Assembly: GCA_045614665.1 (NCBI GenBank)
Contig: JAZLDI010000008.1
Span: forward strand, 1,084-65,083
Direction: 5' to 3'
Length of the DNA stretch: 64,000 nt
Origin: Candidatus Enterousia sp.
GTDB lineage: Bacteria; Pseudomonadota; Alphaproteobacteria; Rs-D84
The notes under the pieces are model-generated. The model saw only the letters and a list, made by a program, of their open reading frames with translations, was not told the origin of the DNA and did not search any database. Positions 31,329-33,728 of this stretch are shown here, one piece after another (position 1 is the first letter of the stretch; every line of letters starts with the position of its first letter). Made by a program: the position numbers and the translations under genes.

Positions 31329-33728
31329 TTAGATATCCAGATTTGCATCCAGCGCATTTTCAACAATAAAGTCACGACGCGGTTCAACAACATCACCCAT
31401 TAACATGGATACAACCTCGTCTGCTTTGGCGGCATCATCAATTCTAACCTGGAACAGCGAGCGATGATTTGGATCCATTGTTGTTTCCCACAATTGTTCG
31501 GCGTTCATTTCCCCCAAACCCTTGTATCGCTGAATCTTTAATCCGGTTTTTGCGTATTCAAATGCCGTTTCCAACAACGTCAACGCGCCCCAGATTTTTT
31601 GTGACTTTGATTTCACACGCAGTGTTGTCGGTTTACCAAACGTTTCAATCAATTCTGCACGCCCATCCATACGCATCCATGCGCGCACTTCTGGTCCATT
31701 AACTTTATCACGTGGCAGGGTATGTGTTTCCGTCACGCTACGCAGTGTACGTGTTATATGAATACCGAACGCATCTGATGTAATTTTCCAACCACGTTCA
31801 AATTCCAATTCCTGGGAATCCAACATTCTTTCAGCACGCGCAAAAGATTCCGTACTTTCATCCTCAAACACATTATTCAGTGCTAACGCTTCTACAAAAC
31901 GCAACGGCATAATGTGATTTAACCCCTGTAAAGTATTGCGCATATTTAACACCAGCCCCAACAGACGTTTCAAATCAGCCCCCGAAATCTGCATACCATT
32001 TGATGTTTCAACAACACCGTCGGTTGCCAGCTGTTCCATCAGATAATCATCCATTTCACGTTGGTTTTGCAGATAAATTTGTGTCTTTCCACGTGTAACA
32101 CCATAAAGTGGTGGCTTTGCCACATAGATATAACCACGTTCAATTGCCTGCGGCATATGACGATAGAAGAACGTCATCAGCAACGTCTGAATATGTTGAC
32201 CATCAACGTCCGCGTCGGTCATGATAATAACCTTGTGATAACGCATCTTTTCGATATCAAATTCATCTTTTCCAATACCGGTACCCATTGTTGTAATCAG
32301 CGCACCAATCGTATCCGATCACAACATTTTATCAAAACGCACACGTTCCACATTTAAAATCTTACCACGCAATGGCAAAATTGCCTGGGTCTTGCGGTCA
32401 CGCCCTTGCTTTGCGGTACCACCAGCTGAGTCCCCCTCAACAATAAATAATTCACACTTTGCCGGGTCACGTTCCGAACACCCCGCCAATTTACCAGGCA
32501 ATCCCCCCAATTCTGGTCCTGTCTTCTTGCGTGATAATTCACGTGCCTTGCGCGCTGCCTCGCGTGCGGTTGCGGCCTCTATAATTTTATCAACGATTGT
32601 TTTTGCAATCGCTGGATTTTCATCCAAGAATTCATATAACATCTCGGACACAGTACTTTCAACAATTGGGCGAACCTCAGATGACACCAATTTGTCTTTT
32701 GTCTGGGAACCAAACTTTGGATCCGGGATTTTAACACTGATGATACTGGTTAACCCTTCACGGAAATCTTCCCCCGACAAATTAATATCTTTCTTTGTAC
32801 CTTTTTCGCCAATATATTTATTAATCGCACGTGTCAACCCAGCACGGAAACCGGCCAAATGTGTACCACCATCACGGTTTGGAATATTGTTTGTAAAGCA
32901 CAAAGATGTTTCGGTATATGCTGTCGTCCATTGCAAAACAATTTCAATATAACTATCATCAAATTGCTTAATCATCTGGATTGGTTCTTTGTTCAGCAAT
33001 TCTTTGGACTTATCCAAATACGTTGCAAACCCCTTTAATCCATCCACAGAATGAAATTCACGTTCTTTCTTGTCGCCCCCACGCAAATCTTCCAGAACAA
33101 TACGAACATTTGCATTAAGGAAAGATTGTTCACGCAACCATGTTTCAAGCGTATCAAAACTAAACTCGGTCCCTGTAAACGTTTCTGGCGACGGCAGGAA
33201 TGTAACTTCTGTTCCATGTTCATTTCCAGATTTATTTTCAACTATTTTCAAATCACATGTTGGCACACCGTCGGCAAACGACATAAAGGCTTCTTTGTCA
33301 CCACGCCATACACGCACCTCAAGCCAGGTGGACAATGCATTAACAACCGACACACCAACACCGTGCAAACCACCAGATACCTTGTATGCGCCATTGCTTT
33401 CGTTATCAAATTTACCACCCGCGTGCAGTTCACACATAATCAATTCCAATGCACTGCGCCCTGTTTCATGATTGATATCAAATGGCATACCACGACCATT
33501 ATCACGGATTGTTGCACTGCCGTCTGGGTTTAAAGAAACATACACTGTATCAGCATAACCTGCCATAGCCTCGTCAATAGAGTTATTAACAACCTCATAA
33601 ATCATATGATGCAGACCAGAACCACCCTCACCCACGTCACCGATATACATCCCCGGGCGTTTTTTTACCGCCTCTAATCCCTTTAAAACCTTAATTGAAT
33701 CACCAGTATATTCATTATTAACAGACAT
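31329..33728 (-). CDS. gyrB: DNA gyrase subunit B, reading frame interrupted by one in-frame TGA (32319-32321)
   Basis: The N-terminal ORF carries the GHKL ATPase, transducer and [12 protein letters not shown]. The C-terminal ORF carries [12 protein letters not shown] and the GyrB tail. The 10 codons between the TGA and the next ATG ([10 protein letters not shown]) are in frame and align with GyrB. Confidence 0.9.

Follow-up and report, generated by a model that had tools for sequence, protein, structure and literature searches.

The DNA gyrase subunit B gene (gyrB) of the analysed window, a 64-kb stretch of DNA, carries a single in-frame TGA, and this TGA is most likely a wrong consensus base produced by a sequencing or assembly error, a reading that draws on population data and not on the source reads. 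gyrB itself is ordinary, intact and strongly conserved, an essential and probably single-copy gene of a ruminant-gut alphaproteobacterium that resembles Candidatus Enterousia. An earlier note on this DNA had pointed out the stop and listed four explanations for it, choosing none: a sequence or assembly error, a pseudogene, a split GyrB and UGA read-through. The observation is confirmed. Of the explanations, a sequence or assembly error or a private change is favoured, the remaining three are unsupported, and a biological interpretation of the stop is not supported.

An in-frame TGA interrupts gyrB

gyrB occupies 31329–33728 on the minus strand and comprises 799 codons and a terminal TAA, intact apart from the TGA at codon 470 (32319–32321, minus strand). 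Plus-strand position 32321 is A (coding-strand T) in the window and C (coding-strand G) in all other sequences, in most of which the codon is GGA (Gly). On the minus strand the TGA, running from 32321 to 32319, is preceded by GAT AAA ATG TTG and followed by ten codons that stay in frame (TCG GAT ACG ATT GGT GCG CTG ATT ACA ACA); these lead to ATG GGT, whose ATG (32288 to 32286) opens a second ORF. The upstream ORF (32319–33728, minus strand), listed as 482 aa (32319–33767) and measuring 469 aa from the ATG at 33728, covers the GHKL ATPase, the transducer domain and the beginning of Toprim with its catalytic Glu. It shares its frame with the downstream ORF (31329–32288, minus strand), whose 319 aa from the internal Met codon hold the remainder of Toprim, with the DxDxD motif, and the tail. 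The sequence and the frame after the TGA bear out the original description of a single stop codon rather than a frameshift.

The 799-aa read-through product, with the stop codon replaced by X in the query, matched NCBIfam PRK14939 with 1080.5 bits (cutoff 796) over profile positions 7–803 of 803 and TIGR01059 with 906.7 bits (cutoff 882.4), and ParE models scored under their cutoffs. Membership in GyrB (PRK14939/TIGR01059) is thus marked by a full-length profile match and by the presence of the Toprim Glu and DxDxD motif. An uninterrupted frame, absent in the window record, is found at the site in all 78 related loci and in every same-species contig that covers it.

The 139 residues surrounding the stop align without gaps to residues 399–537 of E. 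coli GyrB. In ungapped alignment to E. coli GyrB structures, the Toprim catalytic Glu (residue 431, codon GAG at 32436–32438, minus strand) corresponds to E424, and the DxDxD motif (DADVD, residues 505–509, 32202–32216, minus strand) to D498/D500/D502. The TGA lies between these two elements (EGDSAGG and DADVDG), as had been proposed, and it aligns to Ser463. The assignment to the Ser463 position stands; the ancestral codon of the species, which the E. coli alignment had suggested to be a Ser codon, is the Gly codon GGA instead.

Other sequences of the species and its relatives carry a sense codon

To place the stop among sequences of the same species, Logan contigs from eight independent metagenome runs (X1–X8) were aligned to the window gyrB. 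The gyrB contigs of X1–X4 are ~98–99% identical to the window, and those covering plus-strand 32321 (two from X1 and one each from X2, X3 and X4) all have C where the window has A, giving GGA (Gly). C is likewise found in X5, again in same-species sequence of ~98–99% identity and again giving GGA. X6, X7 and X8 contain more distant, related Enterousia strains; here 12 of 12 covering contigs have C at 32321, and variation is confined to the third codon position. The JGI metagenome contig JAEIGA010208064.1 (L081), 97% identical to the window over 2.9 kb, also has GGA. A sense codon such as GGA, which the earlier note had named as the sign of a sequence error, is therefore what every other public sequence of the species has, these being population sequences and not the source reads.

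Searches with short sequence words gave the same picture. A 61-mer with the TGA at its centre, so that practically all of its 31-mers contain the site, was found in 0 indexed runs, and the matching GGA 61-mer from L081 was complete in 5 runs and half covered in a further 6. The exact TGA-bearing 45-mer is absent among GTDB species representatives, and look-ups of the exact products of the two gyrB pieces and of the adjacent UDG gene gave no record. The public runs that share words with the window are bovine or other gut metagenomes, none containing more than 0.65 of the window's words. Since T at 32321 does not occur in any other sequence, the TGA allele is seen only in the window record, with the proviso that Logan contigs lose rare variants and a minority TGA allele in other samples could escape them. 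These alignments show the G-to-T change to be private to the window record and GGA to be the ancestral codon of the species.

The codon was also compared in close relatives, a check that the earlier note had proposed. Among 80 related alphaproteobacterial gyrB loci, 78 cover the site; all 78, of which ~46 are Enterousia-like, have a sense codon and none has a stop. The residue is Gly in 31, Ser in 33, Thr in 4, Ala in 2, Glu in 1 and Asn in 1 of the 72 loci matched by a strict motif, and six further loci, read by eye, have Gly, Asn, Ser, Ala, Thr and Ser. Such variability indicates that the site is not a catalytic residue. The nearest gyrB loci in the GTDB representatives belong to MAGs named Candidatus Enterousia from the gut of cattle, yak, goat, sheep and horse. 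The best of them (L001) has 98% protein identity and only 86% DNA identity, which means that these representatives do not include the window's own species. Enterousia (order Rs-D84, Alphaproteobacteria) is reported to have genomes of less than 1 Mb, ~90% coding and without pseudogene accumulation (PMC12306168).

Selection on gyrB and the age of the change

The dN/dS ratio of the window gyrB against L081 (Nei-Gojobori) is 0.026 for the whole gene, 0.014 before the stop and 0.045 after it, where 12 synonymous and 2 non-synonymous differences are found; against L001 it is 0.032 overall, 0.015 upstream and 0.060 downstream. When changes were polarised with L081 and L001 over the 1,974 bases shared, 16 were private to the window: 15 synonymous, 0 missense and 1 nonsense, the G-to-T change at 32321. 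The window and L081 differ in 3 amino acids, each of these changes being private to L081. No frameshift, missense change or second stop marks decay of gyrB on the window's lineage. By this substitution pattern, gyrB was under strict purifying selection until the G-to-T change itself. The change is either extremely recent or not real.

An extremely recent change would be a genuine nonsense allele, carried by a non-viable or short-lived sub-lineage or by a minority haplotype chosen by the assembler, with no function and no future. The tally of 15 synonymous, no missense and one nonsense change is equally compatible with an error and with a mutation that arose in the very latest generations, and the assembly is otherwise clean, so that a true variant is conceivable. 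In addition, the change perfects an inverted repeat at the site, in the manner of quasipalindrome template-switch mutations. This imperfect repeat spans 32289–32326 (minus strand) with arms at 32315–32326 and 32289–32300, and with the private T at 32321 a T-A pair replaces a G/A mismatch, which makes the stem continuous and lowers the energy of the DNA hairpin from –4.8 kcal/mol (G) to –6.3 kcal/mol (T), a ddG of –1.5. However, 11% of all 7,200 possible gyrB substitutions stabilise the local fold equally or more; the gain is not statistically unusual, and quasipalindrome template switching was rejected as the cause of the G-to-T change. Against a genuine allele there is also the absence of TGA from all other samples, and in genomes of less than 1 Mb (PMC12306168) an essential gene's null allele should not rise to consensus frequency. 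We regard a real nonsense allele as unlikely; it is the main rival of the error reading, and the population data do not separate the two.

The preferred reading is that the change is not real. A single G-to-T at the GGA glycine codon would have been introduced at a poorly covered position during sequencing or assembly, and in the living organism the codon would read Gly, without recoding, expression of a split gene or pseudogenisation. Cooley and Wright (2024, PMC11017572) showed many 'pseudogenes' with internal stops in bacterial assemblies to be assembly errors whose occurrence is linked with coverage, platform and assembler.

Accuracy and content of the window

Over 20 kb (24001–44000), the window differs from contigs of X1 and X2 by ~1–1.5% substitutions. 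No frame-shifting indel lies inside a gene in either comparison, and the few indels seen, against X2 only, fall between genes or at gene ends. Conserved genes matching their profiles essentially end to end include those for UvrB, TopA, DnaG, PBP2, AspRS, RodA, LpxC, LpxK, RmlABCD, MnmE, RuvC and SecB, in agreement with the earlier statement that the other conserved genes are intact, which holds for all those scanned. No difference that breaks an ORF was found apart from the gyrB stop. A generally error-prone assembly is ruled out by the lack of in-gene frameshifts across the 20 kb and by the full length of the scanned conserved genes. This accuracy is also a counterpoint to the error reading: with the rest of the window accurate, an error would not be expected a priori, and it would be one of the rare cases that an anomaly scan singles out.

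The window is chromosomal and carries genes for MnmE, SecB, RuvC, an AddB-like protein, UvrB, AspRS, UDG, LpxC, LpxK, RmlABCD, YchF, DnaG, TopA, RodA, PBP2 and MreC, and it is 92% coding with ~40% G+C. Several of its other features deserve mention. A single 591-aa ORF at 11480–13252 (minus strand), directly downstream of ftsQ (13268–14050), joins an FtsA-like N-terminal part (residues ~21–324) to a ribulose-phosphate 3-epimerase (residues ~395–586), with no stop or obvious start between the parts. It was considered as a second private lesion and rejected, because same-species contigs of X1, X2 and X3 have the same uninterrupted junction; the ftsA-rpe fusion, on the evidence of these contigs, is a feature of the species and not an error. 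The AddB-like protein (841 aa, 4514–7039, minus strand) resembles only the C-terminal part of the alphaproteobacterial AddB model (positions 578–1021 of 1024), with a score below the cutoff, and its N-terminal 430 residues have no family match.

Type IV pilus-like genes (34812–39451, minus strand) adjoin gyrB and encode a T2SSF platform protein, a T2SSE ATPase and a PilO-like accessory protein of the PF06864 kind. At 46738–49463 (minus strand), a gene for a VirB4-family type IV secretion ATPase comes before a 98-aa ORF that occupies the VirB3 position. Both sets lie among housekeeping genes in an apparently reduced genome. Between 49464 and 50303, ~840 bases are without an ORF longer than 62 aa or an Rfam match, the longest apparently non-coding stretch of the window. 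In the non-coding region at 26750–26907, beside tRNA-Met (26945–27019), the X2 strain lacks 143 bases (26751–26893) and has small indels; the absence of the 143 bases is a strain-level length polymorphism between genes.

UGA is a stop codon in the window organism

The 62 gene models of the window comprise 19,560 codons, with 216 TGG and no in-frame TGA other than that of gyrB. A-ending codons are preferred at 64–89% in four of five NNR pairs, and with so strong a preference frequent UGA Trp codons would be expected under a code that permitted them; none was found. The LpxK gene stops at a TGA that falls at position 327 of the 328 in its Pfam profile. Of 423 long-ORF stops in Enterousia-like loci, 95 (22%) are TGA. 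The ATGA stop/start overlaps at 4029–4032, 30378–30381 and 40869–40872, reported previously as signs of a working TGA stop, are present and account for three of the four TGA-terminated genes of the window. TGA is a normal stop in the window organism, and a reading of UGA as Trp or Gly was rejected because of the codon counts and of the TGA that terminates LpxK.

A selenocysteine or other recoding element was also considered and judged unlikely. No Rfam match was obtained on 31300–33800, which includes gyrB, at E ≤ 1, in a database that may lack a bacterial SECIS model. One predicted hairpin (z = –3.1) includes the UGA, and it exists with GGA in L081 as well. The relatives have Gly, Ser, Thr and other residues at the site; that it is never Cys and never a stop argues against selenocysteine.

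The UGA might nevertheless be tolerated, by read-through with a near-cognate or suppressor tRNA, by weak or lost RF2 or by incipient reassignment, yielding full-length GyrB. The residue is variable among relatives, so any inserted amino acid might be accepted. TGA is a rare stop in the window (4 of 61 gene stops, with TAA 49 and TAG 8) relative to the 22% of Enterousia-like loci (binomial p ~0.0009), and reduced bacterial genomes have repeatedly evolved a UGA-to-Trp reassignment. Against this stand the single in-frame TGA and the Trp codons, all of them TGG despite the A-ending preference; the TGA end of LpxK and the GGA of same-species strains; the five window tRNAs, which have ordinary anticodons including Gly-UCC; and the context of the stop, since in E. 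coli a U after the UGA makes for strong termination. Tolerance of the UGA is accordingly very unlikely. The same small weight attaches to the further proposal that the Enterousia strain carries UGA at codon 470 and survives by decoding it usefully, as a member of a lineage that is giving up UGA stops and would be at an early stage of reassignment.

Pseudogenisation and a split subunit

gyrB could be an ordinary pseudogene if its role had passed to a second gyrB or to a different type IIA topoisomerase elsewhere, and such a copy may lie in the rest of the genome, beyond the 64-kb window that the evidence covers. Among the window ORFs scanned there is no second GHKL/Toprim gene. The lineage's lack of missense changes, frameshifts or a second stop, with a dN/dS of 0.03, is not that of a decaying gene, the relatives keep the gyrB locus intact, and the reported small, densely coding Enterousia genomes are without pseudogene accumulation (PMC12306168). 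Pseudogenisation is on these grounds more remote still than tolerance of the UGA.

An AAGGA ribosome-binding site precedes the true gyrB start at ATG 33728. A motif scan found no AGGA, GGAG, GAGG or AAGG upstream of the internal ATG at 32288, confirming an earlier remark that this ATG has no Shine-Dalgarno sequence; 22 of the 41 ATG-started ORFs of the window have such a motif. A two-polypeptide GyrB, in which the 469-aa N-terminal piece and the 319-aa piece from ATG 32288 form an active subunit, could appeal to two long ORFs that are both under purifying selection relative to relatives, but this conservation of both pieces follows from the gene having been whole until the G-to-T change, and the proposal is the least credible of all, given that the split occurs in none of the 78 relatives and no same-species sequence, that the break falls inside the Toprim fold between Glu and DxDxD with the loss of 10 conserved residues, and that the second piece would start without the motif that about half of the ORFs and gyrB itself possess.

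Implications for annotation

In annotation, the window gyrB should be treated as intact, or the base flagged as a likely sequence error. More generally, when a single stop turns up within an essential gene on a contig from a metagenome, population data should be consulted before any meaning is read into it. Were the stop real and tolerated, it would mean UGA read-through, early codon reassignment in little-known reduced-genome gut bacteria, or a split gyrase subunit, any of which would be notable.

Comparison with known systems

The window GyrB has the same full architecture as proteobacterial GyrB (E. coli, e.g. PDB 6rks chain B; PRK14939), including the long proteobacterial-type C-terminal region, the Toprim Glu and DxDxD; it differs from E. 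coli GyrB at codon 470 (the Ser463 position), which is TGA in the window record only.

An in-frame UGA in a conserved gene of a reduced genome recalls the UGA reassignments of genetic code tables 4 and 25, and the Gly codon of the relatives at the site fits table 25. In contrast to those systems, the window has one in-frame UGA in ~19,560 codons, all its Trp codons are TGG, TGA ends genes, and same-species strains have GGA.

The conversion of a mismatch into a pair, which makes the repeat more perfect, resembles quasipalindrome-associated template-switch mutations (Ripley 1982; Klaric, Perr and Lovett 2020, PMC7202029). However, the gyrB repeat is short, a neighbouring mismatch is left uncorrected, and the resemblance is not significant.

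The spurious pseudogenes made by assembly (PMC11017572) offer another comparison. Errors there are tied to assemblies that hold many of them, whereas the 64-kb window holds one and otherwise looks accurate. In its other features the gyrB stop is like these pseudogenes: it is a lone internal stop in a conserved essential gene, is absent from near-identical genomes and is accompanied by no other decay.
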